Program-made: the position numbers and the translations under genes
Part shown: positions 1 to 57,089 of the stretch, one piece after another
Position numbering within the stretch: position 1 is the first letter of the stretch
Layout of the letters: the number at the start of each line of letters is the position of its first letter
Assembly: GCF_964213995.1 (NCBI RefSeq)
Contig: NW_027590164.1
Span: 558,001 to 622,000 of the forward strand
Origin: Mustelus asterias
Taxonomy: Eukaryota
DNA: 64,000 bases
Direction of reading: 5' to 3'
The notes under the pieces: model-generated
Database searches by the model: none
Seen by the model: only the letters and a program-made list of their open reading frames with translations
What the model was told of the DNA's origin: nothing

Positions 1-688
1 ATAAAAATAAAATTTAAAAAGGCTAATGACAATTGTCGTAGCAACCCATCTTCGTTCACTGATATCCTTTAGGGAAGGAAATCTGCCATCCTTATTTGGC
101 AATATGGTTAGGGATGGACAATAATCATTGGCAATGCTCACATCCCATTAATTAAAAAAAACACACAATGATACAGATTGGTTCTGCCACAGTTGTCAGG
201 AAGAGTCAGCAGCCAGGAATTGGACAATGTCTTCAGATTTCCCAGTTTATTATTGGAGGACTGGTGTCAGACAAATTAAACATCAGGCTGATGTGCAGGG
301 CAACTTGGAGGTGATGTTCACATATAGCTGCTTACCCTAGTCATTCTAGACTGTGGAGATTGAGGGTTTGGGATATTCTGTCACTGTTCCTGTCAAGTTG
401 TACATATAAAAAATCTCTACTTCGCTCTGCCTCTCTCACCTCTTTCTCTCTCATCCCATTGCTGTGGCAAGTTTCCTGCCCTCATGTTGGTTCCATAAAC
501 CAGCAGATCCATTCCGTTCAATTTTACAAACTGCCTTTGTGATCTTGTGGGTTTTCTCATTCTCTCTTTTTTTCTGTTTTAAATCTCTCAGAATATTTGA
601 AGAGAAGGATTTGCAGCCGGGACATTCAAACCCACAGCAGAATCTGACAGAATTACCCAATTTATCGTAACCCGACTATCATTTTACT

Positions 689-1741
689 TTGAACATGGAT
701 GAAAAAAGCACCATTCACAGTGGAGAGAAACCGTTTATGTGTGCTGTGTGTGGACAGGGCTACAGTCGATCATCTGGCCTGTCGAAACACAAACGCAGTC
801 ACACTGGAAAGAAGTTGTGTAAATGTGGGTCTGTGGGAAGGAATTTAATTTCCCATCTGAGCTGGAAATGCAGTGACGCTGTCACACCGGGGAAAAGCTG
901 TTTAACTGTTCCGAGTGTGGGAAGGGATTTAATCGCAACGCGCATCTGCACCAACACCAGCGCGTTCACACGAGGGAGAGACCATTCACTTGCTCAGTGT
1001 GTGAGAAGGGATTTACTAGTTCATCTATCCTGCTGAGACACAAGCAGGTTCATACAGACGAAAGACCTTTCAAATGCGCAGAGTGCGGGAAATGCTTTAA
1101 TAGTTCGAGGGAACTGATGAGCCATCGGGGCGGCACGGTAGCACAGTGGTTAGCACTGCTGCTTCACAGCTCCAGGGTCCCGGGTTCGATTCCCGGCTCG
1201 GGTCACTGTCTGTGTGGAGTTTGCACATTCTCCTCGTGTCTGCGTGGGTTTCCTCCGGGTGCTCCGGTTTCCTCCCACAGTCCAAAGATGTGCAGGTTAG
1301 GTTGATTGGCCAGGTTAAAAATTGCCCCTTAGAGTCCTGAGATGCGTAGGTTAGAGGGATTAGCGGGTAAAAATATATGTGTGGGGGTAGGGCCTGGGTG
1401 GGATTGTGGTCGGTGCAGACTCGATGGGCTGAATGGCCTCCTTCTGCACTGTAGGGTTTCTATGATTCTATGAACTCATTCACTCTGATGAAAGACCGTT
1501 CAGGTGCTCTCACTGTGAGGCTGGGTTCAAGCATTCGTATCAACCCTCTCTCCACCAGCGCACTCACACTGGGGAGAGGCCGTACACCTGCTCCCAGTGT
1601 GGGAAGAAGTTCACTCAGCCATCCCATCTTCGGTTACACGAACGGGTTCACTCTGGGGAGAAACCATTCACTTGCACTGTCTGTAAGAAGAAATTTGCTC
1701 ATTCATCCCATATGTTGAAACACCAGCGAGGTCACAAGTAA
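689..1741 (+). pseudogene. C2H2 ZNF pseudogene with a frameshift and a SINE insertion
   Basis: CxxC...HxxxH fingers with TGERP-type linkers. 1-bp deletion near 830 (tgtgggtctgt instead of tgtggggactgt). Removing the SINE at 1127-1472 restores S-H-Q-L-I-H-S-D-E-R-P-F. Stop TAA at 1739-1741. Confidence 0.9.
1127..1472 (+). mobile_element. HE1-type tRNA-derived V-SINE, full length
   Basis: A-box-like tagcacagtggt, B-box ggttcgattcc, V-domain core gtgtggagtttgcacattctcc...gggtttcctccgggtgctccggtttcctcccacagtccaaa, tail ttctatgattctatg. Confidence 0.92.
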
Positions 1742-2829
1742 TTGCAATGATTGGATATTGTTAATCACGCCCAGGATTGAACTGTGTTCATTTGGGGTCT
1801 GTTTTTGCTGATGTTACTAACCTCCAGTCCAGTTATACAAGTGCTAATCTTCTGGCTAAAAGTCAAATAAACTGGCTTTGTGTTAAACAATGTGAGTCGC
1901 TTGAATATCAGACGCAAGTTAATTCCTTCTGAAGGATTCTCCGTCTTTCTATCTGCTCCATCCTCACCTCCAAGTGAGAGGAACTCATGGATCTTCTTTG
2001 ATTGGAAGATTTCAATCTTAGTGACAGTTGCCTCTGCCGTGTCCATCCCATGCACTAACCCACTGAGCTAAAATACCCCTTATCTGAGTCCTGCATCTGT
2101 ATCTTTCTCCAGATTCTCCTACCTCCCCTCATGACCTCTGCCCTCAAGACCCACTTCCTGCACCTTCTATCGTATTCTCGCTGAACTGCTGACTACACAA
2201 CATCCCCATGTGAGCTTACATTGTTAATGGTTCGCATCTTTCTTCGGATATTGTCCCTCTTTCCTTTAAATCTGTTGTCATCTCCCCCCACTCCCCCCAA
2301 AATAACAAACACATCACTCCTGCATCAGTCCCTGGTTAAGCAGCACCCTTGTTTTAAAATTTCTATCCTTATTTTCAATCACTGTATGGCCTCGCCCTTC
2401 CCTATCTTTGTAATCTTCTCCAGCCCCACAACTCTCAAACATCAGATCATTTACAATTCTGGCCTACCAATGGTAGCAGTGCTTTCAGCGTCATCACCTG
2501 TAAGCTCTGGAAATCCCTCCATAAGCCTCTCTACCTCTTTCTCCTTCTTTACGATGCTTCTTAAATGCTTCTTCAAAACTTTGTAAGTGCAGAGGATTGC
2601 TGTAAAATAAGACATGCTGTAGAAGCTTTTTCATTTAACAGGACAGATACAAGAATAGCAAATTTCAAAGGGAACAACAATTTATTCTGTGTGGAAAGAG
2701 GTTGCTGATGGGTTGGGAAGTTGATTCTGGCTGAGTCATTGCAATGTGGAATGCTCCAGGGAACAGTTTGTTCCTCCGTGCTTTTGTTTAATTGGAAAAT
2801 TGAAAGGAGGGAGATGGCAAGTCGCTCAC

Positions 2830-10045: not shown

Positions 10046-11251
10046 ATGGAAAGAAAAAGCACCGTTCACAGTGGAGAGACACTGTACACGTGTTCTGTGT
10101 GCGGACGAGGCTTCAGCCGATCATCTGGTCTGGCAAAACACAAATGCAGCCACTCCATGGAAAAACTGCAGAAATGTGAGGACTGTGGGAAGGAATTTAA
10201 TTACCCATCCCAGCTGGAAACTCATCAGCGCAGTCACACTGGGGAGAGACCATTCACCTGCTCTGAGTGTGGGAAGGGATTCACTCTGTCATCCCACCTA
10301 CTTACTCATCAGCGGGCTCACACTGATGAGAGACCTTTTAAATGCTCAGACTGTGGGAAGTGTTTCAAAAGTGCTGGTGAACTGATGTCCCATCAACGTG
10401 TTCACACTGATGAGAGACCATTCAGGTGCCCTTACTGTGGGACTGGGTTCAGGCATTCACATCACCTCACTGTACACCAGCGAGTTCACACTGGGGAGAG
10501 GCCATTCACCTGCTCTGAGTGTGGAAAAGGATTCACTCGGTCATCCCGCCTGCTGACACACCAGCGAGTTCACACTGGGGAGAGACCTTTTAAATGTTGT
10601 GACTGTGAGAAGTTCTACAAAAGTGCTGGTGAACTGATTTCCCATCAACGTGTTCACACCGAAAAGAAACCATTCAGGTGCTCTCACTGTGAGGCTGGGT
10701 TCAGGCGATCATATGACCTCGTTCTACACCAGCGCACCCACACTGGGGAAAGGCCATTCACCTGCTCTGAGTGTGGAAAGGGATTCACTCGGTCATCCCG
10801 CCTGCTGCAACACCAGCGAGTTCACACTGGGGAAAGGCCATTCACCTGCTCCGAGTGTGGAAAAGGATTCACTAAGTCATCCACCCTGCTGACACACCAG
10901 CGCACTCACACTGGGGAGAGACCTTTTAAATGCTCTGACTGTGCGAATTGCTATAAAAGTTCTGGTGAACTGATGTCCCATCAACGTGTTCACACTGATG
11001 AGAGACCGTTCCGGTGCTCTCACTGTGAGGCTGGGTTCAGGCGATCATCTGACCTCACTGTTCACCAGCGCACCCACACTGGGGAAAGGCCATTCACCTG
11101 CTCCGAGTGTGGGAAGGGATTCATTCAGTCTTCCAGCCTGCTGAGACACCAGCGCACTCACACCGGGGAGAGACCATTCATCTGCTCCGAGTGTGGGAAG
11201 GGATTCACTCAATCATTCCACCTGCTTAAACACCAAAGAATTCACCAGTAA
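10046..11251 (+). CDS. C2H2 zinc-finger protein, 14 fingers, no recognisable effector domain
   Basis: Uninterrupted ORF of about 401 aa from ATG 10046, with 14 CxxC-x12-HxxxH units and TGERP/TDERP linkers. Candidate acceptor tttcacag at 9941. AATAAA near 11369. Confidence 0.9.
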
Positions 11252-12962: not shown

Positions 12963-15012
12963 AAAAGAACAAAGAATAATACAGCACAGGAACAGGCCCT
13001 TCGGCCCTCCAAGCCCACGCCGCTCCCTGGTCTAAACTAGACCATTCTTTTGTATCCCTCCATTCCCACTCCATTCATGTGGCTATCGAGATAAGTCTGA
13101 AATGTTCCCAGTGTGTCCGCCTCCACCATCCTGCCTGGCATTCCAGGCCCCCACCACCCTCTGTGTAAAATACGTCCTTCTGATATCCGTGTTAAACCTC
13201 CCCCCCACCCCCCTCACCTTGAACCTATGACCCCTCGTGAATGTCACCACTGACCTGGGAAAAAGCTTCCCACTGTTCACCCGATCTATGCTTTTCATAA
13301 TTTTAGACACCTCTATTAGGTCACCCCTCATCCTCCGTCTTTCCAGTGAGAACAACCCCAGTTTACCCAATCTCTCCTCATAACTAAGCCGTTCCATACC
13401 AGGCAACATCCTGGTAAACCTCCTCTGCACTCTCTCTAAAGCCTCCACGTCCTTCTGGTAGTGTGGCGACCAGAACTGGACGCAGTATTCCAAATGCGGC
13501 CGAACCAACGTTCTATACAACTGCAACATCAGACCCCAACTTTTATACCCTATGCCCCGTCCTATAAAGTCAAGCATGCCATATGCCTTATTCACTACCT
13601 TCTCCACTTTTGACGTCACCTTCAAGGATCTGTGGACTTGCACACCTAGGTCCCTCTGCGTGTCTACACCCTTTATGGTTCTGCCAATTATCTTAGAGCT
13701 CCCCCCTACGTTAGTTCTACCAAAATGCATCACTTCGCATTTATCTGGATTGAACTCCATCTGCCATTTCTTTGCCCAAATTTCCATCCTAACTATATCC
13801 TTCTGTAGCCTCTGACAATGTTCCTCACTATCTGCAAGTCCAGCCATTTTCGTGTCATCCGCAAACTTACTGATCACCCCAGTTACACCTTCTTCCAGAT
13901 CGTTTATATAAATCACAAACAGCAGAGGTCCCAATACAGAGCCCTGCGGAACACCACTAGTCACAGGCATCAAGCCGGAAAAAGACCCTTCCACTGCCAC
14001 CCTCTGTCTTCTGTGACCAAGCCAGTTCTCCACCCATCTAGCCACCTCCCCCTTTATCCCATGAGACCCAACCTTTTGCACCAGCCTACCATGAGAGACT
14101 TTGTCAGATGCTTTACTAAAGCCCATACAGACGAAATCCACGGCCCTTCCCTCGTCAACCATTCTAGTCACCTCTTCAAAAAACTCCACCAGGTTAGTGA
14201 GGCATGACCTCCCTCTCACAAAACCATGCTGACTATCATTAATGAGTTTATTCCTTTCTAAATGCGCATACATCCTATCTCTAAGAACCCTCTCCAACAA
14301 CTTCCCCACCACGGACGTCAAGCTCACCAGCCTATAATTTCCCGGGTTATCCTTCCAACCCTTCTTAAATAACGGGACCACATTAGCTATCCTCCAAGCC
14401 TCTGGGACCCCACCTGTATCCAGTGACGAGACAAAGATTTGCGTCAGAGGCCCAGCGATTTCACCTCTCGTCTCCATGAGCAGCCTTGGATAGATTCCAT
14501 CAAGCCCTGGGGATTTGTCAGTCTTTACATTCCCTAAAAAACCTAACACTTCCTCCCTTGTAATGGAGATTTTTGCTAACGGGTCAACACTCCCCTCCGA
14601 GACACTCCCAGTCAACACATACCTCTCCTTTGTGAATACCGACGCAAAGTATTCATTTAGGATCTCCCCTACTTCTTTGGGCTCTCAGCATAATTCCCCA
14701 CTTTTGTCCCTGAGAGGTCCGATTTTTTTCCCTGACAACCCTTTTGTTCCTAACATATGAATAAAATGCCTTGTGATTCTCCTTAATCCTGTCTGCCAAG
14801 GACATTTCGTGACCCCTTTTTGCCCTTCTAATTCCTCGTTTGAGTTCTTTCCTACTTTCTTTGTATTCCTCCAGAGCTCCCTCCATTTTTAGCTGCCTGA
14901 ACCTAACGTACGCCACTCTTTTCTTTTTGATCAATCCCTCAATTTCCCTGGTTATCCACGGTTCTCGAATCCTACCCTTCCTATCCTTTTTTACAGGCAC
15001 ATGCCTATCCTG
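12963..15012 (-). mobile_element. CR1-clade (HER1-like) LINE, 5'-truncated, RT region
   Basis: ORF 13083-14618 contains PGNYRLVSLTS, QHGF, GVPQGSVLGP, KFADDTK and RPHLEYCVQFWSP. The 3'UTR and tail end near 12963. Confidence 0.93.
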
Positions 15013-18103: not shown

Positions 18104-18283
18104 ACACAGTAAGAAGTCTCACAACAACAGGTTAAAGTCCAACAAGTTTATTTGGTAGCACAAGCCACTAGCTTTCGGAGCGCTGCTCCTTCATCAGGTA
18201 AGTGGGAATTCTGTTCACAACCAGGGCACAGAGACACAAACTCAATTTACAGAATAATGGTTGGAATGAGAATCTTTACAGGT
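18104..18283 (-). mobile_element. Penelope-like family B terminal repeat with hammerhead-like core
   Basis: Minus strand CTGATGA-aggagc-agc-gctcc-GAAA (18173-18197). Homologous to 61370-61540. Confidence 0.7.
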
Positions 18284-18284
18284 C

Positions 18285-18690
18285 ACTGCGCATGTTTTAG
18301 GCCCCGCCCCTCATTCACTCTGATTGGTTGGAGGACCAGCCGCTCCCGCTCGGTCCTCCAGGCCCGCCCCCTCTTCCTATTGGTCCAGAGCTGCCGTCAA
18401 TTAGTCCCCGGGCATTGTGACGTTGGGCATGTGCAGTGCGGCTCATGTCCAGGGACAGGCGCTTGTTTGTCTGATCTTCAGGCGGGAAGGAGGCGGATAA
18501 GCGGAGGCAGCGTTAGGGGCAGTGGGTGGGAGGGGAGGCTCCACACACCCAGTGGAGGCTTCAACACCCCCAATAAGGAACTAGCGGCACCGCCTCAACA
18601 CCCAACACAACGGCAGCTGCAGCGCTTTCTCCCGGGGCCAGGCCCCAGTGGACAAATGTGGCTTCAGGAAGGAAATGCAGCAATGGGTTT
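18285..18690 (+). promoter_or_regulatory. CpG-rich promoter/5' region, inverted near-identical copy at 46785-47180
   Basis: GC boxes ccccgcccc, two ATTGG (CCAAT) boxes, NRF1-like tgcgcatg and tgacgt. Lies upstream of + strand ZNF leaders. Confidence 0.6.
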
Positions 18691-19233
18691 GTTAATGAGA
18701 ATCATCTTTCACTCACTTTACTGACCCTGGAGCAGGAGGAGAGAATGGGGGGAATTTCTCTCCTGCACTCACACTGATGGATTTTGGAACCGCCTTTTAC
18801 AGAGAGTTCAAAGGGGAGGATTTACACACAGAAAACTGAAATCTAACAAGACATCAAGATCTGAGAGAGTCACTTGATCAATCAGAACCTGGATATTACG
18901 GACCCTTGAGTGGAACCATTCAGCTCTGGGTCATTCCTATTCTCCATTGGGGTGCAGTACACCAGTAATCCAGAGGACAAGAATAATGTTCTGGGGATAA
19001 TGGTTAAAAACATACCAGGATAGCTGGTGGAATTTAAATTCAGTTAATAATCTAGAATTCAATGCGAGTCTCAGTATTGGTAACTGTGAAGCCATTGTGA
19101 TGAGTTGAGGGAAAATGCGTGGAATTGGAATTTGCAGCTTTGGGAAACAAGAGAGAAATAAGTATTCCCCACGAACTAGAATTATCTGTTCTGAATTTGT
19201 GTCCTGGACTGACCTGTATGAACTGGATTTTCA

Positions 19234-19845: not shown

Positions 19846-20290
19846 TTAAAGTTGATCTATTCGTCACAAGTAAGGCTTACATTAACATTGCAATGGAGTT
19901 ACTGTGAAATCTGAGACACTAGTTAGAGCACAGGTGACTGTAGATATTTTACTGGGGATTAGAAGGAAAGGATTTGCAGACAGGAAATTATCTGCTGATT
20001 TTACAGTCACTTAATTCATCAGGACTTGAATTTGAATGTGGAAGGAGAGATGTTTGTTCTGTCTGTTTGAAAAGATTTCGAACATCAGTGTGACTGGAAA
20101 AGCACCGAGACACACACACACCCGAGTGAGAGTGTTCCAGTGAACTGACTGTGGAAAGAGCTTTAACCACTTACACAGCCTGAAAAAACATCACATCATT
20201 CGCAGCGAGGAGAAACCATACACGTGTTCTGTGTGTGGATGAGGCTTCAACTGATTATCCAACCTGGAGAGACACAAGGACACCTGCACC

Positions 20291-21131
20291 ATGGAGAAAC
20301 TGTTGAAATGTGGGGACTGTGGAAAGGGATTCAGTTACCCTTCTGAACTGGAAACTCATCAACGCAGTCACACTGGAGAGAGGCCGTTCACTTGTTCTGA
20401 ATGTGGGAAAGGATTCACTCGACTAACCCACCTCACTGCACACCAACTTATTCACATTGACATGAGACCTTTTAAATGTTCTGACTGTGAGAAGAGTTTT
20501 AAAACCAAATACAATCTTTCGACACACCATCGAGTTCACACTGGGGAGAGGTGGTTCACCTGTGCTGAGTGTGGGAAGGGATTCACTCAGTTATCCAGCC
20601 GGCATTCACACCGGCGAGTTCACACTGGAGAGAAACCATTCACCTGTCCTGAGTGCGGGACGGCATTCGCTCAGTTATGCAAAATGTTGGATCACCAGCG
20701 AGTTCACGCTGGGGAGAGGCCATTCACCTGCTGTGTGTGGGAAGGGATTCACTCAGTCATCCACCTTGCTGAGACACAAGCGCATTCACACTGGTGTGAG
20801 ACCATTCACCTGCTCCGAGTGTGGGAAGGGATTCACCCAGTCTGCCCAACTCACTTCACACCAACGTGTTCACTCTGACACGAGACCTTTTAAATGTTCA
20901 GACTGTGAGAAGAGCTTCAAAGGCAAAATGGATCTGCTGATTCACCAGCGAGTTCACACTGGAGAGAGACCGTTTATCTGCTGTGTGTGTGGGAAGCGAT
21001 TCACTCAGCATTCCCTCCGGCTGAAACACCAGCACAGTCACACCAGGGAGACATTATTCATCTGCTCAGTGTGTGGGAAAGGATTCACCCGTGCGAACAC
21101 CCTGCAGAAACACCAGCGAGTTCACAAATGA
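20291..21131 (+). pseudogene. 10-finger C2H2 ZNF with one 2-bp frameshift (pseudogene or sequence error)
   Basis: ORF 20291-20878 holds fingers 1-5 and ORF ending 21131 holds fingers 6-10. One TG unit is missing at 20729-20741 (tgctgtgtgtggg). Confidence 0.85.
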
Positions 21132-21529
21132 TTACAGGAGTTGGTTTCTGCTTTTATTGCTGCTGTTAATCACAAGACTGAACCATGCTCATTCTGACAG
21201 TTAGAGGTTGTTTCGGTTGAAGTTGAAGTTAATAATCCTTGTAACTACACTGGAGTTTAAGATTCTGAGTATAGATTAAATCAACTTTGTGTCAATCACA
21301 CATGTTTGCGTCCTTGATTTCTCGAGGGTAAGAGGAGACTGATTACCGACTGTTCCATTGTTGGTTCTTTTCTGATACGTTTTGGAAGATGTGGCAAACG
21401 AAAGAGTAAGGAATGAGAGAAAGGTAAGAATTTGGGAAATGATAAACAGACTGTGACAGGAAGATAATGAAAGAGCAAATTATAGATTACATCAGTAGAT
21501 GTGGTTAGACGCTACAAAAATATTAAAGG

Positions 21530-24137: not shown

Positions 24138-25640
24138 CAAACACTTTCTTTTCTCCCCCTTTCCATTTCTTTTCTCATTCTGGGGGAAATTGGGGACTTG
24201 CAGCAACTGAAGGGTAAGGAAGTGAATCCAGGGAGGCTGCAGACTCTGGAAAGGTTGGCCCAGGTCTCTCGCTCTCTCTGAAAGACATTGACATCCTTTG
24301 CTCCCTCAGCTTGATACATTGATTTGTCTGGCTAAAAGGATGGTCTCGTTCCTAATGTTCACAATTAAAGGGCTGGTTTCTTCAGGAGATAGTTGACATT
24401 TAAGTGGAATATAGTAAGGTTTGGCATGTTTGGATATGTTTGGTGTAATCTGGTGTAAATTTATGATTCTTTGTGGGACAGTAATTTTATATAGCTCAGT
24501 GTTATGTCTAGTTTTGTTGTTAGGTACATATTAGATATATTATTTATGGTTCTGTGATAAATTTCATTTATTGTTATTTCAAATTTGTAATATAGCACTG
24601 TGGTGACATACCTTTCCAGACATTGATTAATTACAGCACAGAAGATGTTCATTCGAGTCCGTGCTGACTCTCTGTCGAGCAATCCAGCCAGTCCCATTCT
24701 CCCGCTGTACCCTTGTATCTCTGCAAGATTATTTCCTTCAGTTGTCCATCCAGTTGAGCTTGAAATCTTGGATCATCTCTAATTCCAGCATTCTCATAAG
24801 CAGCGAGTTTGTGTTTGTGAACACTCAGCACCTTAATGAAGTTCTTACTGACATGGTCATGAAGCTCTGAGCAAGTAATACAGCAGTGTTTATTCAACAC
24901 ATGTTTTCCTCCAGAATCTGTACCTATGGGTTGTGTTTGTATTGAGTCTGGCAGTCTGCATCAAGGTTTTCAGGTCTCCAGGTCAGGAAGCAGTGAGTAG
25001 GGGTCGGCCACTCAGCATCAATCAGCACCTTCAGGAGAATTGTGAGGGTGTATATTAGATACAGCAGAGTGAGAGCAGAGGGAATATGTGAGATTGAGGT
25101 TTACAACTTTTGGTGAACAAAATAGGAATGAATGTTCAACTGAAACTAGAATCGTGTGTTCTGAATTTCTCTGCTGTACTGACAGTGCTGACTTTTCTAA
25201 ATTCCTTTTACAGGTTTTGAGAAGGAGAAGATTTGCGATAGAAATCTGAAACCAAACGTCACACCGAGACCTGACACATTCACTCGATTCAAAAGGACCT
25301 GAATATCATCGCTCTTTCAGTCTCGAATTGAGTTGAAGTATGTACAGATGGAGGGCGTTGATTGGATCATTATATGAGTGTGTATGAAAAAAGCGTGTAT
25401 AAAGAAATGGTGTTCTGTCTGCGTCAAAAGGTTTAAATATGTGACTGGAAAAGCATCAAGACACACAGATCTGAGTGAGAGTGTACCAGCGAACTGACTG
25501 TGGAAAGACCATTAACCAATTACACACCCTGAAATAAATATCACACCATTCACAGGGAGGAGAAACCATACTCGCTTTGTGTGTGTGGACAAGGCTTCAA
25601 TTGATCATCAAACCTGGAGAGACACAAGGACACCCGCACC

Positions 25641-26270
25641 ATGGAGAAACCGTGGAAATCTGGGGACTGTGGGAAAGGATTCAAAGCTCCATCTCAACTG
25701 GAAATTCACCGACACATCCACACTGGGAAAAGACCTTTTATCTGCTTTGAGTGTGGGAAGAGATTCACTCAGTCATCGCACCTGCAGACACACAAGCGAG
25801 TTCATAGTGGGGAGAGGCCATTCACCTGCACTGAGTGTGGGAAGGGATTCAAGGATTCATCTACCCTGCGGACACACCAGCGAGTTCACACCAGGGAGAG
25901 ACCATTCACCTGTGCTGAGTGTGGGAAAGGATTCACTCAGTTATCCAACTTGCTGACACACCAGCGAATCCACACTGGAGAGAGACCATTCATCTGCTCT
26001 GAGTGTGGGAAAGCGTTCACTGAGTCATCCTGTCTGCTGACACATCAACGCAGCCACACCAGGAAGAGGCTGTTCACCTGCGCTGAGTGTGGGAAGGGAT
26101 TCACACGGTCACCTCATCTGCTGACACACCAGCGAGTTCACACTGGGGAGAGGCCATTCACTTGCTCCGTATGTGGGAAGGGATTCACTCAGTCATCCAA
26201 CCTGCTGACACACCAGCGAGTTCACAGCAGGAAGAACCCATTCACCTGCTCCAAGAGAAGGATTCATTGA
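25641..26270 (+). CDS. C2H2 ZNF, 6 intact fingers plus 1 degenerate, decayed tail to about 26485
   Basis: 209-aa ORF from gcaccATGG. First finger has Cys->Ser (KSGDC). Further out-of-frame fingers at 26270-26485. Acceptor at 25213. Confidence 0.72.
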
Positions 26271-32307: not shown

Positions 32308-33066
32308 TCACTTGTGAACTCGCTGGTGGTTGCGCAGGTAGGTTGACCGACTGAATCTCTTCCCACACTCAGAGCAGGTGAATGTCCTCTCCGCAGTGTG
32401 AAGACGCTGGTGTAACTGCCGGCTGGATGAATCAATGAATGCTTTCCCACACTCAGAGCAGGTGGGTGGCCACTCCCCAGTGTGAATCCGCTGGTGTGCC
32501 TTCAGGTAGGATGACCGACTGAATCCCTTTCCACACTCGGAGCAGGTAAACGGCCTCTCTTTGGTGTGAACTCGTTGGTGTATCCGCAGGCTTGATGAGT
32601 CAATGAATGCCTTCCCACACTCAGTACAGGTGAACGGCCTCTCCCCAGTGTGAGTGCGTTGGTGTATCCGCAGGTTGGAGGAGTGAGAGAATCCCTTGCC
32701 GCAATCAGAGCAGGTGAACGGCTTCTCCCCGGTGTGAACTCGCTGATGTGCCTGCAAGTGAGATAACCGACTGAATCCCATCTCACACTCAGAGCAAGTG
32801 AATGGCCTTTCCCCAGTGTGAATTCGCTGGTGTGTCAGCAGATCAGATGAAGTAGTGAAGGTCTTCCCACACTCGGAGCAGGTGAACGGCCTCTCCTTGG
32901 TGTGAACCCGCTGGTGTCTCAGCAGGTGGGATGAATGAGTGAATCCCTTACCACAATCACAGCAGGTGAACGGTCTCTCCCCAGTGTGAGTGCGTCGATG
33001 AATTTCCAGCTGAGACGGGGATTTGAATCCCTTCCCACAATCCCCACATTTCCACGGTTTCTCCAT
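32308..33066 (-). CDS. C2H2 zinc-finger protein, 9 fingers, intact
   Basis: Open frame [10 protein letters not shown]...HQRVHK* from gcaccATGG at 33066. Acceptor at 33396, exon-1 donor at 34743. Confidence 0.88.
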
Positions 33067-33529
33067 GGTGCGGGTGTCCCTGTCTCCAGGTTTGTTGTTC
33101 AGCTGAGGTGGCCACACAAAGCGTCTGTACAATCTCTTCCTGGTGTAAATGGTGATGGTCTTTCAAACTATGTAACTGTCACTGGAACAGTCTCACCCAG
33201 ATGTTTGTGTCTTGCTGCTTTTCCAGTCACACTGATGTTTAAAACTTTCTGAAGCAAAGAGAACAGAAAGACATTTCTCCTTCCAGATTCAAAGGCTAAT
33301 GATATTCAGAGCCTGATAATTGAGTGACTCTGTCAATTCTTCACTTGATGCTTGATTTGAATTTTGTGTCTGCAAATCCTCCCCCTTTGAAGATCCTGTA
33401 AAAGAGGTTTACAAATTTCATCACCGTCAGTTAAGGATAGAATCTACAATTGGCAGTCGTTAATTTCTATGAAGCATTATTTTCTATCTTGTTCCCCGAA
33501 AGCTGTAAATAACTGTCCCACACTCTTGC

Positions 33530-34895: not shown

Positions 34896-35004
34896 TACAA
34901 ACAGAAGCTGTTCTGTTTCAAATCAAACTGCGGGACTTGGAAGAAAATGATGGGAAGATTTTGCAAAGTCCCCTCCCCCACTCCCTCAGCTGGCAGCCCA
35001 GCAC

Positions 35005-35090
35005 GCAGGCGCAGAGAGCGCTGCTGAGCCGAGCTGTCCGGAGCAGGCGCAGAGAGCGCTGCTGAGCCGAGCTGTCCGGAGCAGGCGCAG
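35005..35090. repeat. 38-bp tandem duplication
   Basis: gcaggcgcagagagcgctgctgagccgagctgtccgga, about 2.3 copies. Confidence 0.9.
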
Positions 35091-36319
35091 TGCGGCTGCC
35101 GCCAGCGGTCGCTCTCGATCTCTTTTTGAAGCAGCAGCCGCCGCAGAGAGAGGGGGGAGGGGGGAGATCACCGAGCAGCTTCTCGCTCTGGCCGGAGCCG
35201 GTTGCCTGGAAACCTTGGCTCGAGGAAGCACAGGGGGAATGGAAACAATGGGAGGGGGCGTGTCCGCGCGCCTGGGCCTGCGCACTGGAACCCCACGACG
35301 TCATGGCAGAGCAGACCGATTCCTATTGGCTGATTCTAGCGTAGACGTTCCCAACGCTCAGTCTCCCATTGGAGGAAAAAGACAACATTGCGGATTGGAC
35401 AACAGCTCCACGCGTTCGGAGGTCAAAGTGTCTCCGGCCCCACGTGGGCTCGGGTTTCGCTGCCTATTGTCTTCATTGACCAATGGCAAGAGCTGGAGGA
35501 CCGGAAGAACTCTGATCATCCAGCCAATCAGTGGCGGGTTTGTGCCAATGGCTGCACGGGTCATCCTGATTGTCTGAACGTGGAGCTGGTCAAGCGGCTG
35601 CTTCCCTCTTTCTGAAGATTGAGCTTCACACATTACAAATTTCTCCCCTGTCCAACATCCGTGAGTAAAACACTTTCCATTTCTTTTCTCATTCTGGGGG
35701 AAATTGGGGACTTGCAGCAACTGAAGGGAAAGGAAGTGAATCCAGGGAGGCTGCAGACTCTGGAAAGGTTGGCCCAGGTCTCTCTCTCTCTTAAAGACAT
35801 TGACATCCTTTGCTCCTCCAGCTTGACACATTTATTTGTCTGGCTAAAAGGATGGTCTCTTTCCTAATGTTCACAAGTATAGGGGTGGTTTCCCCAGTGG
35901 ATGGCTGACATTTAAGGGGACAGTAAATTAATATAGCACACAGATATACCTGGTGTTGTTGTGGTACATATTAGACATATTATTTATGGTTCTGTAAAAA
36001 TGTTTACTGTTATTTCTACATTTTAATATAGTACTGATATCTTTAGGGCCCTTGCGAAAAGATTCAGCAATTCCAGTCCTTCCCAATGCTTCATCGAGCA
36101 ATCTAGTCAGCTCCATTCCTCCCTAAATAACTGTACTTGTGGAAGTTTATTTGCTTCAAATATCCACCTGTTTCGTTTTGAAATAAGTTACCACTGCTTC
36201 CACGATCGTCTTAGGCAGAGAAGCAGATTATCGCTTTCTAAATAATGTCCCCTGAAGCTGTATTGCTAATTAAAAAATAGAGTATGGTAGAGCACACATT
36301 TTTCATCCAGTTATATACA

Positions 36320-37433: not shown

Positions 37434-37812
37434 AATGTGTCTGGATGGATTTTTGAGGAATTATAGAGGAAAGAAGATTCCATAGAAACTAGAATTTTTG
37501 GTTTTGAATTTCTATTCTGCACCAAATGACAACTTTCATGAACTTCTTTTACAGAATATCAGGAGGCGATTTGCAGACATAAATCCCAAAAGACATTAAG
37601 CAATGGCGTAACTGGAAAAGCACCGAGACACACACACACACAGCCGAGTGAGTGCTTCAGTGAACTGACTCTGGAAAGAGCTTTAACCAGTTACACAGCC
37701 TGAAAGAATATCACACCATTCACAGTGAGGAGAAACAGTACACGTGTTGTGTGTGTGTGAACGAGGCTTCAACTGATCATCGAACCTGGAGAGACACAAG
37801 GACACCTGCGTC

Positions 37813-38879
<1,067 letters not shown>

Positions 38880-39780: not shown

Positions 39781-40503
39781 TTCATTTATTATCTGATTGT
39801 TTCACTGGTGCTCGAGCTAAGAAATTATTGTAGATCCTCGATGAGGGGTGTCTTATAGTGTAATACTTTGTACAAAATAAAGACCATCATGGTTTTATTT
39901 TTCAAATAGTTTTGAAATATTGTGTGTTGTTATAATTCGGGTCGAGAACATTAACGTTCAGTGAGAAATCCAAACACCCATCACAAGATTCCAGGTTTTT
40001 AAACAAAATCAAACTTCACTGAATATAAACAGAATATTTAAAACCAGCTCGATGAATTATATTTTGTAAAGATTTATTCTGTAAACTCAGTTCTGACTCA
40101 AAACATGAACTCTGTTTTCACTCTCTACAGATGCTGCCAGACCTGCTGACGTTTTGCAGCATTTTTCAGTTTTTGTACTTTTTAACCCTTACTCCTCGAC
40201 AAGAGTGCCCTTATACTTAATATCTTGAATGTTCATTCACTTCTGTTCCTGGGACAATCCCAAAGGTATGTCAAAGCTCCCAGAATTCACTTTAATTCGC
40301 CTCAGTAATCCAGCTATTCTCCAGACTCCAAGATTTCATGAGGATCCTTCTATTAGCTTTCGGCTAAACAACTCTCCAACTTTCCTTTGAGATTTCAAAA
40401 TTGACTCAAAACATGGACTCCTCAATTCAAGCATGGGCTTCACTGCCTTCTTGTTGGGGGATTTAAACATTGGGAACATCCATGGTTCCTAATGACCTCC
40501 TCG

Positions 40504-41917
40504 GCTCCCGGACCCACAGCTGGTTCACAGCTCCTGGACCCACAGCTGGTTCACAGCTCCCGGTCCCACAGCTGGTTCACAGTTCCCGCTCCCACAGCTG
40601 GTTCACAGCTCCCGCTCCCACAGCTGGTTCACAGCTCCCGCTCCCACCGCTGGTTCACAGCTCCCGCTCCCACCGCTGGTTCACAGCTCCCGGTCCCACA
40701 GCTGGTTCACAGCTCCTGCTCCCACAGCTGGTTCACAGCTCCTGGTCCAACAGCTGGTTCACAGCTCCCGGACTCACAGCTGGTTCACAGCTCCTGCTCC
40801 CACAGCTGGTTCACAGCTCCCGCTCCCACCGCTGGTTCACAGCTCCCGCTCCCACCGCTGGTTCACAGCTCCCGGTCCCACAGCTGGTTCACAGCTCCTG
40901 CTCCCACAGCTGGTTCACAGCTCCTGGTCCAACAGCTGGTTCACAGCTCCCAGACTCACAGCTGGTTCACAGCTCCCGCTCCCACAGCTGGTTCACAGCT
41001 CCCGCTCCCACAGCTGGTTCACAGCTCCCGCTCCCACCGCTGGTTCACAGCTCCCGCTCCCACCGCTGGTTCCCAGCTCCCGGTCCCACAGCTGGTTCAC
41101 AGCTCCCGGTCCCACAGCTGGTTCACAGCTCCTGGTCCCACAGCTGGTTCACAGCTCCTGCTCCCACAGCTGGTTCACAGCTCCCGGACTCACAGCTGGT
41201 TCACAGCTCCCGCTCCCACAGCTGGTTCACAGCTCCCGCTCCCACAGCTGGTTCACAGCTCCCGCTCCCACAGCTGGTTCACAGCTCCCGCTCCCACAGC
41301 TGGTTCACAGCTCCCGCTCCCACAGCTGGTTCACAGCTCCCGCTCCCACAGCTGGTTCACAGCTCCCGCTCCCACAGCTGGTTCACAGCTCCCGGTCCCA
41401 CAGCTGGTTCACAGCTCCCGCTCCCACAGCTGGTTCACAGCTCCCGCTCCCACAGCTGGTTCACAGCTCCCGCTCCCACAGCTGGTTCACAGCTCCCGCT
41501 CCCACAGCTGGTTCACAGCTCCCGCTCCCACAGCTGGTTCACAGCTCCCGCTCCCACAGCTGGTTCACAGCTCCTGCTCCCACAGCTGGTTCACAGCTCC
41601 TGGTCCAACAGCTGGTTCACAGCTCCCGGACTCACAGCTGGTTCACAGCTCCTGGTCCCACAGCTGGTTCACAGCTCCTGGTCCAACAGCTGGTTCACAG
41701 CTCCCGGTCCCACAGCTGGTTCACAGCTCCCGGTCCCACAGCTCCCGCTCCCACAGCTGGTTCACAGCTCCTGGTCCAACAGCTGGTTCACAGCTCCCGG
41801 TCCCACAGCTGGTTCACAGCTCCCGCTCCCACAGCTGGTTCACAGCTCCCAATCCCACAGCTGGTTCACAGCTCCCAATCCCACAGCTGGTTCACAGCTC
41901 CCGCTCCCACAGCTCCC
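40504..41917. repeat. 26-bp tandem satellite/minisatellite, about 54 copies
   Basis: Unit cccacagctggttcacagctcccgct with variants (ccggt, ctgct, ctggt, cggac, caat). Confidence 0.97.
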
Positions 41918-43750
41918 AAGCTAACTGCAGACTGCCTGCTTTCTGTGAGAAACACCCAGAATTCCAACCAAGACCACCCTGAATCACTTATCCCCATGGT
42001 AACAGACGAGTTGAGATGTCCAAAAGATGTTTAAATTAATTAACTTTTAGTTTCAGAACCAAACCTTTTTTCTTGAGGTCTGCGTGAAGAATTCCCCTCT
42101 CTAACAAAGACAGGAAAAAAATTGTCAGACCTGATGTCTCCACTAAAAGAGCCCAGCTGCCCTGGTTCTTGTTCTTACCCTTCCAGCTTTGACTTCTCAA
42201 ACCAACATGGGCCACACCTTGTGACTGCAAATTCCCTCAGGGTGTTTTTATCAGATTCTCAACCCAGGTTTTCCAGTTGTTACATTTTTTTTTAAATCCA
42301 AAATTAATATTTCTGAAACACATGAATTATTAAACTAGATCTTCACAACATATTCCCTGGAAGAAATGAAAATGTATCACAATAATATCCCATTTAGAAT
42401 ATTACAATGTAAAACATACTGGATATCTTAACAGCAGCCATGATCTAATCGAATGGTGGGGCAGGCTCGAAGGGCCAAATGGCCTCCTCCTGTTCCTAAG
42501 TCCAATGTTTTCCTATGTTTAACTATCTTATAACCTGCAACAGACATAATAATCCCTCCATTGTCCACTTCACAGTCACAAGTCCAGCTTGATAACAGCA
42601 CACTGCTGGGTTCCATGTCCAGGAATCTCAGTCCACTGAAGATTGAAAATATTATTGGTTTCAGTGTTTTCTGAAAGTTTTCTTCTTTCAATAATTATAG
42701 TACTTTTTAATAATTATAGTTTCTTCTGCAAGAGAAGAGTCCTCATTGCTGTTCAGTTGTGGATTTCCAATTCTGAAAACAGTCTGTTCAGAATTCATCT
42801 TTTGAACTTTACTTTCTTCCATGTTTGTAGTTCCTCCATTGTTTAAATCCAGAGAGAATATTCCAGTCAATTCCACATTGAAATGTCTTCTTCTTGCTCT
42901 GTTGTAGCTGGAACTTCATTTTTAATTTCATTTCCCAGAATCAAACATTCTGGATTCTCTTTTGGAGAGAGCAAGTTCATAGCGGCTTCTTTCTGTGCCA
43001 ACAACTCGTTCCTTCATTGGACAAAATCTTATTTAGCCATTTTAAGAATGTTGTTAAAATGCTTTTTATGTTAAGCAAAAAGGTCTGATATTCTTGTTTG
43101 GAGCATTTTGGATCTTGGGCTTCAGAAATCGGGGAATTGAGAACAAAAGCAGGGAAGTTATTCTGATAGTTTCTAAAGCTCTGGTGAGGCCACAACAGAA
43201 CACTGAGCCCAGTTCTGGTCACCACACTTTAGGAAGGATGTGAGGGTCCTTGAGAAAGTCGAGAGGAGATTTACCACAATGGTTCCAGAGATGAGGAAGA
43301 TGACGCGAATGTGGAACTTGCTACCAGTGAGTGGTTGAGGTGAACAGCATGAATACATTGAAGAGGAAGCTAGATACATACATGAGGGAGAAAGGAATAG
43401 AAGGAAATGCTGATGGGGGGAGATGAAGAGGGGTGGGTGGAGGCTCATATGGAGCATAAATACTGACACAGACCAATTGAGCCGACTGGCCTGGCCCTGT
43501 GCTGTAGACTCAATGGAACAGAGACAATTGTATTTATTTTAGATCTACCTAGTGTTTGTGGATCATCTCAGTAAAATGTGCACTCCCAAATTCAAACAGC
43601 ATCGACCCACTGGCAGCAAAGCCGTGAGGTCGGTCAGTCCAGCAGAAAGAAACCCTCCGACCCTCTCACTTCAGCAACTGTCAGAATGAACAAGGTTTAG
43701 TCCTGGGTGTGATTAACAGCAGCAATAACAACAGAACCCAACTCCTGTAA

Positions 43751-44678
43751 TCACTTGTGAATTCGCTGGTGTCTCAGCAAGTGGGACGACCGTTTAAATC
43801 TATTCCCACACTCGGAGCAGCTGAATGGTCTCTCCCCAGTGTGAACTCGCTGGTGTGTGAGCAGATTGGAGATCTGAGTGAATCCCTTCCCACAGTCAGA
43901 GCAAGTGAATGGCCTCTCCCCAGTGTGAACTCGCTGGTGTGCCAACAGGGTGGATGAATGACTGAAACCCTTCCTGCACACAGAGCAGGTGAAGGGTGTC
44001 TCCCCAGTGTGAACTCGCTGGTGTATTAGCAGTTGGGATGATGTTCTAAATCTCTTCACGCAGTTGAACGCAGCTGAACGGTCTGTCCTCAGTGTGAATG
44101 CGCTGGTGGCCCATCAGAGTCTGAGAGCTTTTGAAGCTACGCCCACAGTCTGAGCATTTAAACGGTCTCTCATTCGTGTGAGTGACACGGTGTGTCTGCA
44201 GGGTGGATGAATGACTGAATCCCTTCCCACACACACAGCAGGTGAACGGCCTCTCTCCAGAGTGAACTCGCCGGTGCCTCCACAGGGTGGAACGATCACT
44301 GAATCCTTTCCCACAGTCTGAGCAGGCGAAAGGCCTCTCCCCGGTGTGAACTCGCTGGTGGGTCAGCAGGCTGGATAACTGAGTGAATCCTTTCCCACAC
44401 ACGGAGCAGGTGAACGGCCTCTCCCCAGAGTGAACTCGCTGGTGTCTCAGCAGGGTGGTTGATATACTGAATCCCTTCCCACACACAGAGCAGGTGAACG
44501 GCCTCTCCCCAGTGTGAACTCGCTGGTGTCTCAGCAGGGTGGTTGATATACTGAATCCCTTCCTACACACTGAGCAGGTGAATGGCCTGTCCCCAGTATG
44601 AACTCGTCGATGTGTGTCCAGTGCAGATGGGCACTGGAATCCCTTCCCACAGTCCCCACACTTCCATGGTCTCTCCAT
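43751..44678 (-). pseudogene. 11-finger C2H2 ZNF with one +1 frameshift
   Basis: [10 protein letters not shown]... gives 7 fingers. An extra A near 44065 (caactgc instead of cactgc) shifts the frame, and the remainder ends HQRIHK* at 43751. Acceptor at 45029. Confidence 0.82.
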
Positions 44679-45559
44679 GGTGCCAGTGTCCTTTTGATAA
44701 TGAGTTGATTCCACATCCAAGTACAGAACACGTGTACAGTTTCTCCTCGCTGTGAATGGGGTGATGTTTTTCAGGCTGTGTTACTGGTTGAAGCTCTTTC
44801 CACAGTCAGTTCACTGGAACACTCTCACTCAGGTGTGTGGGGTCTCCATTCTTGTCCAGTCACACTGATGTTTGAAATCTTTTCCCACAGACAGAATAAA
44901 CAAACATTTCTTCTCATACATTCAAACGGCAATTATATTCAGGTCCTGATGAATCCAGTGACTTTGTAACATCTTGTTGTGACGTTTGGTGTGAGATTTC
45001 AGTCTGTAAATTCTCTCCTTCTAATATCCTGTTTATAGAAGTTATCAGTGTAAGTATAGAACTGAAATTCAAAACAGACAATTCTAGTTTCCATGGAATA
45101 TTCTTTGCTTTCTCATTCCCTAAGGTTGTAAATCTCCATCCCACACACTCTCCCCCCCATTGTCATACTGCTGTACCTAATACACACCCTCCCAATTCTC
45201 CTGAAGGTGCTGATTCAGGCTGATTGTCAGACCCATGCTCCTGTCCAGTACAAAGAGACCTGAAAATCTTCATGCAGGCTGCTAGCCAATGTCCACATTA
45301 CTAAACATATTATTTGATCAGCAATAGAAAGGAGATGTAAGGAACAATTTTATTCACGAGTGGTTACGACCTGACCTCACTGCTTCTGTGCATGGTGGAA
45401 TCAGAAATGATCAATGATTTGAAAAATAAATCAGATAGGTGTGAAGGAATTAAAAAGGGAACAGAGTTATGGAGGGGAAATGGGACTGAGTGGATTGGTG
45501 TACAGAGAGTCAGCATGGACTTCTTCCAACTATCACTGGAATATATACAAAATTTCAGG

Positions 45560-46592: not shown

Positions 46593-46784
46593 CCTTTTGA
46601 ATGGACCGACCTCAAATTAAGCTGATCTTTCTCTTCACCCTTTCTGTAACTGTAACACTATCTTCTGCACTCTCTCCTTTCCTACTCCCCTATGTACTCT
46701 ATGAACAGTATGCTTTGTCTGTACACCGCGCAAGAAACAATACTTTTCACTGTATCCCAATACATGTGACAATAAATCAAATCA

Positions 46785-47480
46785 AACCCATTGCTGCATT
46801 TCCTTCCTGAAGCCACATTTGTCCAGTGGGGCCTGGCCCCGGGAGAAAGCGCTGCAGCTGCCGTTGTGTTGGGTGTTGAGGCGGTGCCGCTAGTTCCTTA
46901 TTGGGGGTGTTGAAGCCTCCACTGGGTGTGTGGAGCCTCCCCTCCCACCCACTGCCCCAAACGCTGCCTCCGCTTATCCGCCTCCTTCCCGCCTGAAGAT
47001 CAGACAAACAAGCGCCTGTCCCTGGACATAAGCCGCACTGCGCATGCCCAACGTCACAATGCCCGAGGACTGATTGACGGCAGCTCCGGACCAATAGACA
47101 AAGGGGGCGGGGCTGGAGGACCGAGCGGGAGGTCCTCCAACCAGCGTGAATAGGGGGAGGGGTCTGAAGCATGCGCAGTGTGGGTAATGGCGGCGGACGG
47201 ACGGTTTTAACTCGAATCCGAGATCAGTTCAAGGTAAAGGGCGGCGCGCGGAGAGCGATGAATGTGGCGGGTGGAGAGGCTTCGTAAACATGTTGTTCAA
47301 ACTCAAACTTCGGGAAAATATCTTCCCGGGCGCCCTGTTGGTACCAAATTGGAGGCGCAACTTGTCGTGTTGGGCCTGGGCTGACGGCCGTCAATCTGTC
47401 GTTAGCAATGTCTATCAGTGCGCATGTGCGGCCGGCATCTTTGTGAGGGGCAATGTGCAGCAGGGTGCAGGTGCGATTGC
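46785..47480. promoter_or_regulatory. Bidirectional CpG-rich promoter
   Basis: Inverted copy of 18285-18690, plus NRF1 gcatgcgca, YY1-like aatggcggc and a candidate + donor aagGTAAAG at 47234. Confidence 0.6.
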
Positions 47481-49729: not shown

Positions 49730-49958
49730 ATGGAGAAACCATGGAAATATGGAGACTGTGGGAAGGGATTCAGAGCCCCATCTGAGGTGGAATCTCATCG
49801 ACGCAGTCACATCGGGGAGAGACCGTTCATATGCTGCACTTGTGGGAAGGGATTCAATCATTCATCGAATCTGCTGAGACACCAGTGAATTCACACTGCG
49901 GAGAGGCTAGTCACCTGCTCACAGTGTGGGAAGGGATTCAGAGATTCATTCACCCTGC
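49730..49958 (+). pseudogene. Truncated C2H2 ZNF pseudogene
   Basis: [10 protein letters not shown] (Cys->Tyr), premature TGA at 49886-49888, third finger broken off at a G-rich tract. Acceptor at 49549. Confidence 0.85.
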
Positions 49959-50093: not shown

Positions 50094-50683
50094 TCGCTTG
50101 TGAAGTTGTTGGTGTCTCTGGAGGTTGGATGACCGATTGAATCCCTTCCCACACACAGAGCAGGTGAATGGTCTCTCCCTGGTGTGAACTCGCTGGTGTG
50201 TCCGCCGTGTGGATGACCTCCTAAACCTCTTTGAGCAGTGAGAGCAGCTAAACGGTCTCTCGTCAGTGTGAATGCGCTGGTGGACCATCAGTTCCCGAGA
50301 GCTTTTGAAGCCACTCTCACAGTCAGAGCATTTAAAGGGTCTGTCTTGGGTGTGAGTGACCTTGTGGCTCAACAGGTTGGGCAACTGAGTGAATCCCTTC
50401 CCACACACAGAGCAGGTGTACGGTCTCTCTCTGGTGTGAACCCGTTGGTGTGTCAACAGATTGTTCAACCGAGAGAATCCTTTCCCACAGTCAGAGCAGG
50501 TGAACGGCCTCTCCCCAGTGTGAACTCCCTGGTGTGTTTGTAAATGGGATAACTGACTGTATCCCTTCCCACACACAGAGCAGGTGAATGTCTCTCCCCA
50601 GTGTGACTGCGCCGATGAGTTTCCAGTGCAGATGGGAACCTGAATCCTTTCCCACAGTCCCCACATTTACACAATTTCTCCAT
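50094..50683 (-). pseudogene. 7-finger C2H2 ZNF pseudogene
   Basis: 1-bp deletion in the first linker (about 50590). Stop codon lost (cac aag CGA versus paralogous cac aag TGA). Exon-1 donor mutated GT->GG near 51443. Acceptor at 51025. Confidence 0.85.
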
Positions 50684-51439
50684 GGTGCGGGTGTCCTTGT
50701 GACTCTCCAGGCTTGACAATCAGTTCAGTTACAACATAACATGGGTGCGGTCTCTCTGCTGCAATGTATTTTCAGGCTGTTTAACTGGTTAAAGTTCTTT
50801 CCACAGTCACTCAGGTGTGTGCATGTTTCAGTGTGTGTGTGTCTCGGTGCTTTTCCAGTCACACTGATGTTTAAAATCTCCTGAAGCAGACAGAGCAGAG
50901 AAACATTTCCATTCTAGGTTCAAAGGTCGATGATATTCAGGTCCCAATGAACTGAGTGACTATGTTAGATTTTGATGTGAAGTTTGGTTTGATCATCGTC
51001 TTTAAATCTTCACCTTCTGATATCCTGCAAAAGGAATTTACAAAATTCATCAATGTCAGCACAGGATAGAAATTCAGAACAGACAGTTCTAGTTTCTCTG
51101 GAACATTCTTTCCTCTCTCATTCCCCAAAAGCTGTGAATCTCCATCCCACACACTCTCCCTCCATTCTCACTCTGCTGTATCTAATATTCACCCTCCCAA
51201 TTCTCCTGAAGGTGCTGATTGAGGCTGATTGATAGATCCACGCTCACTGCTTCCTGTCCTGGGCACAGAGAGAGCTGAAAATTTCCATGCAGGCTGCCAG
51301 ACAGATAAATGTCTACATTACTGGAGTAACAATGTGTGGAATGTACAGACCGGATTCACTTCATTCCCTTCAGTTGCTGCAAGTCCCCAATTTCCCCCAG
51401 AATGAGAAAAGAAATGGAAAGGGGGAAACATTGATTTCC

Positions 51440-54057: not shown

Positions 54058-54556
54058 TTTCCTCTCTCATTCCCCGAAAGCTGTAAATCTCCATCCCACA
54101 CACTCTCCCTCCATTCTCACTCTGCTGTATCTAATATTCACCCTCCCAATTCTCCTGAAGGTGCTGATTGAGGCTGATTGACAGATCCATGCTCACTGCT
54201 TCCTGTCCACCACACACAAATCATAAGAAACAGGAGCTGCAGTTGGTCATTCAGCCCATCGAACTGCCTCAACCATTCATTGAGAATTGGCTGATCTACC
54301 GCAGCATCATTTCCCATGCTATCCAGCAGATAGAGAGAGAAAAGAGCCAATGTTTCGTGTCTGGAGAGAGGAAAGAATGTTCCATAGAAACTAGAATTGT
54401 CTGTTCTGAATTTCTATCCTGTACTGACACTGATGACCTCTGTAAACTTGTTTTACAGGATACTGAAAGAGGAATCACAGGCTGAAATCTCAAACGTCAC
54501 ATCTAGATCTGACAGAACAGTCTTCAACTGAAGAGAGAGGCAAGGACACCTGCACC

Positions 54557-55327
54557 ATGGAGAAACCATGGAAATGTGCGGACTGTGGGAAGAGATACAG
54601 AGTCCCATCTCTGCTGGAAGCTCATCGGCGCAGCCACACTGGGGAGAGACCATTCACCTGCTCTCAGTGTGGGAAGGGATTCACTCGGGAATCCAACCTG
54701 CAGAGACACCAGCGAGTTCACACTGGGAAGAGACCGTTCACCTGCTCTCAGTGTGAGAAGGGGTTCACTGATATTTCCACCCTGCGGAAACACCAGCGAG
54801 TTCACACTGGGGAGAGGCCGTTCACCTGCTCTCAGTGTGGGAAAGGGTTCAGTCAATCATCCCACCTGCAGAGACACCAGCAAGTTCACACTGGGGAGAG
54901 ACCATTCACCTGCTCTCAGTGTGGGAAGGGATTCACTGATTTATTCACCCTGCGGAGACACCAGCGAGTTCACACTGGGGAGAGACTGTTCACCAGACTG
55001 TTCACCTGCTCTCAGTGTGAGAAGGGATTCAGTCAGTTATCCAACCTGCGGATACACCAGCGAGTTCACACTGGGGAGAGACCATTCACCTGCTCTCAGT
55101 GCGGGAAGGGGTTCAGTCGATTATCCACCCTGTGGATACACCAGCGAGTTCACACTGGAGAGAGGCCGTTCACCTGCTCTCAGTGTGAGAAGGGATTCAG
55201 TCAGTTATCCAACCTGCAGACACACCAGCGAGTTCACACTGGGGAGAGACCGTTCACCTGCTCTCAGTGTGGGAAGGGATTCAGAGTTTCATCCCAGCTG
55301 CTGAAACACCAGCGAGTTCATGAGTGA
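54557..55327 (+). CDS. C2H2 zinc-finger protein, 9 fingers, intact
   Basis: 256-aa ORF from gcaccATGG with eight CSQC fingers. Acceptor at 54458. Conserved ZNF 3'UTR follows. Confidence 0.88.
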
Positions 55328-56639: not shown

Positions 56640-57089
56640 GGCCAACTTCCCCTTTGTGATGTCACAGTGGAGCCATCCTTGAATCAGCCAATAGGAATCT
56701 CTCTGCGCCGCGGTGACGTCTCCGGGTTCCAGTGCGCAGGCCCGGGCGCGCGGACCCGGGAGCCCCGCCCCCACCTATTGTTCCCCTCCCCCTGCACCAC
56801 ATCGAGCCAAGGTTTCCAGGCAACCGGCTGACGGCTCCGGTCAGAGCGAGAAGCTGCTCGGTGATCTCCCCCTCCCCCCGGCCGGGGACTGCGCATGTCC
56901 AAGGGAGAAGGAAGCTGTGAATTGCAGGGCAGATCCCACCCCCTGACCTTCTGAGGTGTTGACCAATGGGAAGAGTTGGAGGACCGGAAGGACTCTGGTT
57001 CTCCAGCTGATCAGAGCGCTGGCTTTGTGTGAATGAAGATTGAGCTTCAGACAGACTGAAACTTCCTCCTCTCTCCAACATCTGTGAGT
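56640..57089 (+). promoter_or_regulatory. CpG-island ZNF promoter and non-coding exon 1 (donor at 57084)
   Basis: CCAAT, TGACGTC, GC box, tgcgcatg and ccggaag. Paralogous to 23930-24137 and 35480-35666. Confidence 0.65.

Follow-up and report, generated by a model that had tools for sequence, protein, structure and literature searches.

A family-wide in-frame stop upstream of the start of shark C2H2 zinc-finger genes is probably an inherited scar

An early nonsense codon can be tolerated and kept when an in-frame AUG lies downstream, as set out for reinitiation 'scenario 3' in the accessible part of PMC10275272. The tetrapod KRAB-ZNFs and cyprinid FiNZ-ZNFs, in the available portion of PMC10547256, are clustered recent duplicates in which a splice acceptor and a spacer come before the finger array, itself a single exon. 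The shark finger genes described here share this organization, but the four exon-2 ORFs scanned carry no effector domain, and their spacer and first three fingers are present as non-coding relics. The in-frame UGA found here between two finger-like stretches invites comparison with the type II UGA readthrough signals in the portion of PMC13517186 consulted. The strings 'chondrichth' and 'cartilag' are absent from the main text of PMC10547256, which does not describe the leader, nor do the accessible parts of PMC8455134. A search of the main texts of openly available literature found no paper on this shark leader.

We analyzed a 64,000-nucleotide stretch of the Mustelus asterias genome (the window; G000:C132:558001-622000 in the 3.68-Gb genome), which is a tandem cluster of C2H2 finger genes with 91 finger motifs. 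A preliminary description had noted an in-frame TGA exactly 39 nt before an ATG located in a finger linker, and had proposed that the N-terminal fingers became a 5' leader with a newly recruited start, and that the retained stop acts in uORF reinitiation or readthrough. Comparison of the family members suggests that this TGA, at position -39, is an inherited scar and not a control signal, a reading to which we give a probability of roughly 0.8.

The gene cluster and the type-A leader

The finger genes of the window are interspersed with what we take to be LINE and SINE fragments. They form clustered paralogues with TGEKP-linked arrays and PF00096 hits, the features of a tandem C2H2 zinc-finger gene expansion, and the closest named proteins are from sharks. 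A leader query against the 3.68-Gb genome gave 3558 first-look candidates, of which 40 were scored. The survey covered 1.954 Mb, comprising the window, its C132 flanks and stretches of 14 other contigs, which were picked around earlier matches and so do not form a blind sample. With a profile built from the first coding finger only, 186 gene starts were found in this sequence. After three at edges were dropped, 183 were retained: 139 of type A, 21 of type B and 23 others, the automatic 'other' class including several type-B and a few type-A copies. The type-A starts were collapsed at 92% identity into 85 lineages.

Further features of the region were recorded. Segmental duplicates of the whole finger-gene cluster occur on many contigs, and a decayed type-B gene at the start of the window (671-1750) has a near-identical copy 59.4 kb upstream, at G000:C132 ~499,300. 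A LINE fragment at 13083-14684 (minus strand) contains a 533-codon open reverse-transcriptase frame. At 40405-42034 lies a tandem minisatellite of ~1.5 kb in which all three plus-strand frames are open, and at 57200-60270 a unit of ~1.2 kb is repeated in two to three copies with long minus-strand open frames. Two pairs of related GC-rich stretches, 18113-18724 (plus) with 46777-47223 (minus) and 34918-35831 with 56662-57281, lie near gene 5' ends and are candidate promoter or first-exon modules.

In type-A genes, the splice acceptor is followed by a spacer, dead fingers 1, 2 and 3, and the linker ATG, which occupies the Gly codon of a TGEKP linker. The acceptor lies at -366 and is CAG in 69/85 lineages, and the 41-codon spacer has an open frame in the family consensus, from which individual copies differ by ~9-20% across the leader. 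Two in-frame stops are family-wide, a TGA at -200 in dead finger 1 and the TGA at -39 in dead finger 3, the latter at helix position -1 (GFN*SSNLERH). In the focal copy, on the plus strand, the acceptor site and relic spacer lie at 19952-20054. Dead finger 1 (20055-20117) contains the first family-wide TGA at 20091-20093. The first Cys codon of dead finger 2 (20141-20203), a site polymorphic for TGC and TGA in the family, is TGA. Dead finger 3 (20225-20287) holds the -39 TGA at 20252-20254. It also has another in-frame TGA at 20240, specific to this copy, and at 20239 an ATG that opens a different frame overlapping the main ATG. The main ORF extends from the linker ATG at 20291 to 20878 (195 aa, 5 fingers) and ends in a frameshift, past which four more fingers continue in another frame to 21131. 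The focal copy is therefore damaged: its acceptor is mutated to CTG, additional in-frame TGAs are present at 20240 and at 20141, and the frame shifts after the fifth finger.

The four TGA/ATG pairs of the preliminary description, at 20252/20291, 25602/25641, 37774/37813 and, on the minus strand, 50722/50683, were confirmed to lie exactly 39 nt apart. Besides the focal copy, they belong to a plus-strand paralogue (25602-25643) with a 209-aa ORF whose first finger lacks its first Cys, a plus-strand paralogue (37774-37815) with 259 aa and 9 fingers before a frameshift, and a minus-strand paralogue (50681-50722) with a frameshift after the first finger. The pattern had been called family-wide. Its sharing is indeed far above chance, owing to common descent of stop and spacing, but it is exact in only four of the nine type-A starts of the window. 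Among the remainder, a plus-strand paralogue (54529-54559) has lost most of its leader, carries a TGA 28 nt before the ATG and has an intact 256-aa ORF; a minus-strand paralogue (33064-33101) has an out-of-frame TGA 35 nt before the ATG and an intact 252-aa ORF; and in another on the minus strand (44676-44703) TCA replaces the stop and 14 nt are deleted before the ATG. The copy at 62131 has TCA at the stop site and AGG for the ATG, and the copy at 49730 has a deletion. Type-A derivatives with most of the leader deleted were also seen several times on G000:C132 at ~386,670-821,000 and at 54459-54557 of the window; in these, finger 1 is joined to the linker, the protein starts MGKPW and the ORFs are intact.

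The likely linker start and the probable ancestral codon

The linker ATG is kept in 72/85 lineages with about half the usual change, and at this point the indel count per 39 nt drops from 11-26 to 3-4. Its strong ACC-ATG-G context is supplied by the linker, the flanking bases being the first bases of the linker Thr and Glu codons; A at -3 and G at +4 were each found in 79/85 lineages. Upstream of the ATG, changes at the three codon positions of dead fingers 2-3 show no periodicity (6.6/8.3/8.0), compared with 4.7/7.6/10.4 in the first coding finger, and of the 117 dead-finger indels only 15 are frame-keeping. The same linker start was seen in Heterodontus, Cetorhinus and Mustelus proteins, those of Cetorhinus and Mustelus beginning with MEKPW/MGKPW or MEGK; Heterodontus models contain a 19-residue segment. 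In contig loose-end consensus sequences of two other organisms the TGA is present (3 and 10 contigs). Protein searches for intact leader fingers, word-limited and therefore weak where blank, returned only generic finger proteins and shark proteins starting at or just before the linker. In the comparison with KRAB and FiNZ effectors, a spacer search gave one protein with a short unannotated N-terminus. Translation likely starts at the linker ATG, and we infer a founder older than the divergence between horn sharks and other galeomorph sharks. The proposed conversion of fingers into a leader with a new start thus stands as regards decay to non-coding sequence and a likely linker start, but not as regards a control role of the stop.

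Type-B genes lack dead fingers 1-2 and have an ATG 111 nt upstream of the linker, so that finger 3 is translated. The plus-strand gene at 10046-11251 (14 fingers) has its own ATG at 10046, the previously reported CGA at 10118 and a further ATG at 10157 within the linker. It had been described as reading through the site; instead, it belongs to the type-B subfamily and translates this finger normally from its own upstream ATG. Type-B genes also speak against the idea that the stop explains the loss of an effector, as they keep a sense codon yet begin directly with fingers. At the codon equivalent to -39, 11 of the 21 type-B starts carry CGA, 6 CAA and 1 TGA. As CGA or CAA is found there in type-B genes, we infer that CGA (Arg) was the ancestral codon.

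Fresh CGA>TGA changes were found in 2/21 genomic copies of the 10046 lineage, possibly from one event, compared with TGA in 0/37 other type-B matches (CGA 24, CAG 9, CAA 2, CGG 2). Though the numbers are small, this lineage looks like a small replay of CGA>TGA with the linker ATG downstream. The two copies, L073 (G000:C71:11626700) and G000:C115:905918, changed at the same codon; the new TGA makes a real 24-codon uORF, with the linker ATG 39 nt further on (seen in the C71 copy). Two other observations concern type B. Many of its genes have a common in-frame TAA 9-10 codons before their own ATG (window 695 region, L035), which we regard as a second subfamily-wide inherited stop; stop distances in type B range from 4 to 130 codons. 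In one copy (L080:1447-2406, minus strand) an open frame of 320 aa runs uninterrupted from the acceptor across the spacer and the fingers; the closest protein in the database carries 34 N-terminal residues that come from an upstream exon.

Across the 85 type-A lineages, the -39 triplet is TGA in 61, TAA in 7, another triplet in 11 and deleted in 6, with no CGA or CAA. A single founding event is favored because CpG decay occurring independently should produce CAA and TGA equally often. An exact-pattern search of the genome yielded 47 TGA copies and one CGA copy, the latter with a broken leader and an open finger ORF. A type-A copy near a contig end (L171, G000:C71:20043132) has CGA here, and its leader retains numerous intact CpGs, which suggests low methylation or GC-biased conversion. 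We propose that the spacer and first three fingers probably ceased to be translated in the founder gene and that CGA likely decayed once to TGA, the stop being tolerable because an ATG lay in the next linker downstream. Duplication would then have spread the leader with its stop through the large shark-type C2H2 family, where scanning ribosomes would meet the -39 TGA as ordinary untranslated sequence with no task of its own.

Retention of the stop and its spacing

A stop occupies the -39 site in 68/85 lineages. On the tree, the -39 triplet changed 17.9 times against a median of 21.7, and 31% of 222 non-CpG leader triplets changed as little or less. The TGA was retained in 55/68 lineages, compared with 59/67, 59/67 and 60/69 for the out-of-frame TGAs at -279, -164 and -110. 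Intact genes kept the stop in 33/46 cases and broken genes in 27/39; four intact and four broken genes have a sense codon, and nine and eight, respectively, are unaligned, some of these copies still carrying the stop. Within the available power, tree changes and retention counts agree that the TGA mutates at the rate of the leader, which the preliminary description had named as the observation that would speak against it. These data do not support selection on the -39 TGA for uORF reinitiation or for readthrough, as its rate is ordinary and broken genes keep the stop equally.

TAA replaces TGA at -39 at least six times. For the two in-frame stops pooled, changes to TAA were 13:18 compared with 34:119 at ten control TGAs (p=0.04, after omission of two further control sites at which TGA does not represent a stable ancestral state), and for -39 alone 6:9 (p=0.20). 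The two in-frame stops had 10.8 and 10.0 stop-destroying changes, fewer than the mean of 14.5 for the control TGAs (range 8.4-17.4). Apart from the weak pooled excess of TAA, conservation of the stop, as would be sought in a regulatory uORF, did not exceed that of control TGAs or other triplets.

In 61/69 lineages (59/67 in another count) the 39-nt spacing is exact, which places it within the top 2% of non-coding windows. The stretch from stop to ATG has 11 distinct indels, 2 of them frame-keeping, compared with 13-26 in twelve other windows. Against a raw expectation of 23 this gives p=0.004; against 18, once deletions that would take out the ATG are discounted, p=0.05; and against 13, from three neighboring windows, p=0.33. 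Nearness to the start explains much of the low count, and there may be a small excess.

Weak purifying selection could keep the in-frame stop as an insulator, so that stray upstream initiation, at new ATGs or near-cognate codons, cannot add broken fingers to the protein. Leaders have a median of three upstream ATGs, and the pooled TAA excess, the fewer stop-destroying changes and the few stop-to-ATG indels are in the expected direction, but the -39 site alone shows no significant TAA excess and retention is the same in broken genes. The common TAA of many type-B genes would likewise suit an insulator; stop distances in that subfamily are nevertheless scattered, and among intact genes some have TCA or CGA at the site, while in others the stop is out of frame or deleted. 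We consider an insulating function distinctly unlikely, and favor the inherited scar.

Upstream frames, the slow core and known systems

Programmed readthrough or selenocysteine recoding of the TGA would yield a longer isoform with extra fingers, and the finger-like frame upstream is still recognizable. However, this frame has upstream frameshifts and other stops in nearly all lineages, is open for a median of 26 codons before the -39 stop and reaches the acceptor in 0/58 lineages. It shows no codon-level constraint, so that an open, constrained frame on both sides of the stop was not found. A UGA-CUG context is present at the -200 stop in at least 46/85 lineages, but at -39 the stop is mostly TGA-T or TAA-T, followed by TTG or TCA in 23 lineages each, with TGA-C in 2/85, and the repeated replacement by TAA also argues against decoding of UGA. 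Neither a leaky context nor a 3' structure was detected around it (folding z averaged 0.08 across -75 to +5 in 33 copies). The UGA aligns with Arg/Gln in type-B genes and not with the Cys expected of a selenoprotein, an Rfam scan of 19900-21400 returned 0 matches, and none of the 141 retrieved proteins has intact leader fingers. Readthrough or recoding is thus extremely improbable.

An upstream ATG in frame with the -39 stop, which a regulatory uORF would need, was found in few lineages: an ATG uORF ends at this stop in 12/78 lineages with a definable exon-2 leader, and the family consensus has none. At the -200 stop the corresponding count is 25/78. A motif upstream of some genes, which we take to be YY1-like, was considered as a family-wide uORF start through its ATG and rejected, as only 9/126 type-A starts have it within 6.5 kb on their own strand.

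The leader is not uniformly neutral. A 100-nt core at family positions -210 to -110 (20081-20181, plus strand, in the focal copy), which takes in the last part of dead finger 1 with the greater part of dead finger 2 and leaves the -39 TGA outside, evolves 27-33% slower than the rest (6.4 vs 9.5 events per site; composition-corrected rate 0.73; best-window permutation 0/5000). Both groups of the cluster show the slow core, broken genes do not evolve faster in it (0.086 vs 0.101), and it falls below the deeper intron in rate in only 45/79 lineages. The core has no codon pattern. Gene conversion, a local mutation rate or a DNA element may account for it. A candidate RNA stem (-205 to -192 with -156 to -144) was rejected: the pairs kept equal the number expected by independence, with one compensatory cell, its sites do not change less often than other core sites (6.65 vs 6.26), and the mean folding z is -1.05 in 32 copies. 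A run search listed no RNA data set with this sequence; 18 putative RNA runs of three other organisms contain small shares. Contigs of these organisms cover the leader, with depth highest over 20083-20184, although contig depth cannot rank gene parts.

Control could instead reside in dead finger 1, where a 15-codon frame (ATG at -245, TGA at -200) together with the slow core, and not the -39 TGA, would mediate uORF reinitiation. An ATG uORF ends at the -200 stop in 25/78 lineages, the core starts at about -210, and the ATG at -245 is kept in 46/63 lineages, but intron ATGs are kept as well (32/44, 39/50, 36/54, 50/65 and 50/69). Leader ATG gains are below expectation (117 vs 218), as they are in the intron (34 vs 52). 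uORF content also varies widely among copies, and the absence of a faster core rate in broken genes and the lack of covariation in the candidate stem count against this mechanism, which we consider very unlikely. A broader version, in which selection keeps both the core and the two stops, so that the three former fingers form a shared regulatory leader setting the translation of hundreds of paralogues via the dead-finger-1 uORF, also appears unlikely. If the slow core or the stops were under selection, this would amount to a common translational control for a whole effector-less finger family.

On the inherited-scar reading, these shark genes should be annotated from the linker ATG, and shared upstream stops in shark finger genes are not evidence of recoding. 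The family would provide a clear natural case of coding sequence turned into 5' leader in a family founder, although the principle of an early stop tolerated through a downstream AUG is already known. Type II readthrough signals, in the part of PMC13517186 available, have UGA-CUA or UGA-CGG; here the contexts are UGA-UUG or UGA-UCA, and the upstream frame is broken and unconstrained. The cases in the accessible part of PMC10275272 combine early nonsense with a downstream in-frame AUG to give an N-terminally shortened protein, and the same would hold here. They differ in that here the state would have been fixed in the family founder and the upstream frame has since decayed, so that present-day reinitiation is not needed. 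The replay in the 10046 lineage appears to follow the path described there, with a downstream AUG allowing an early stop to be tolerated.
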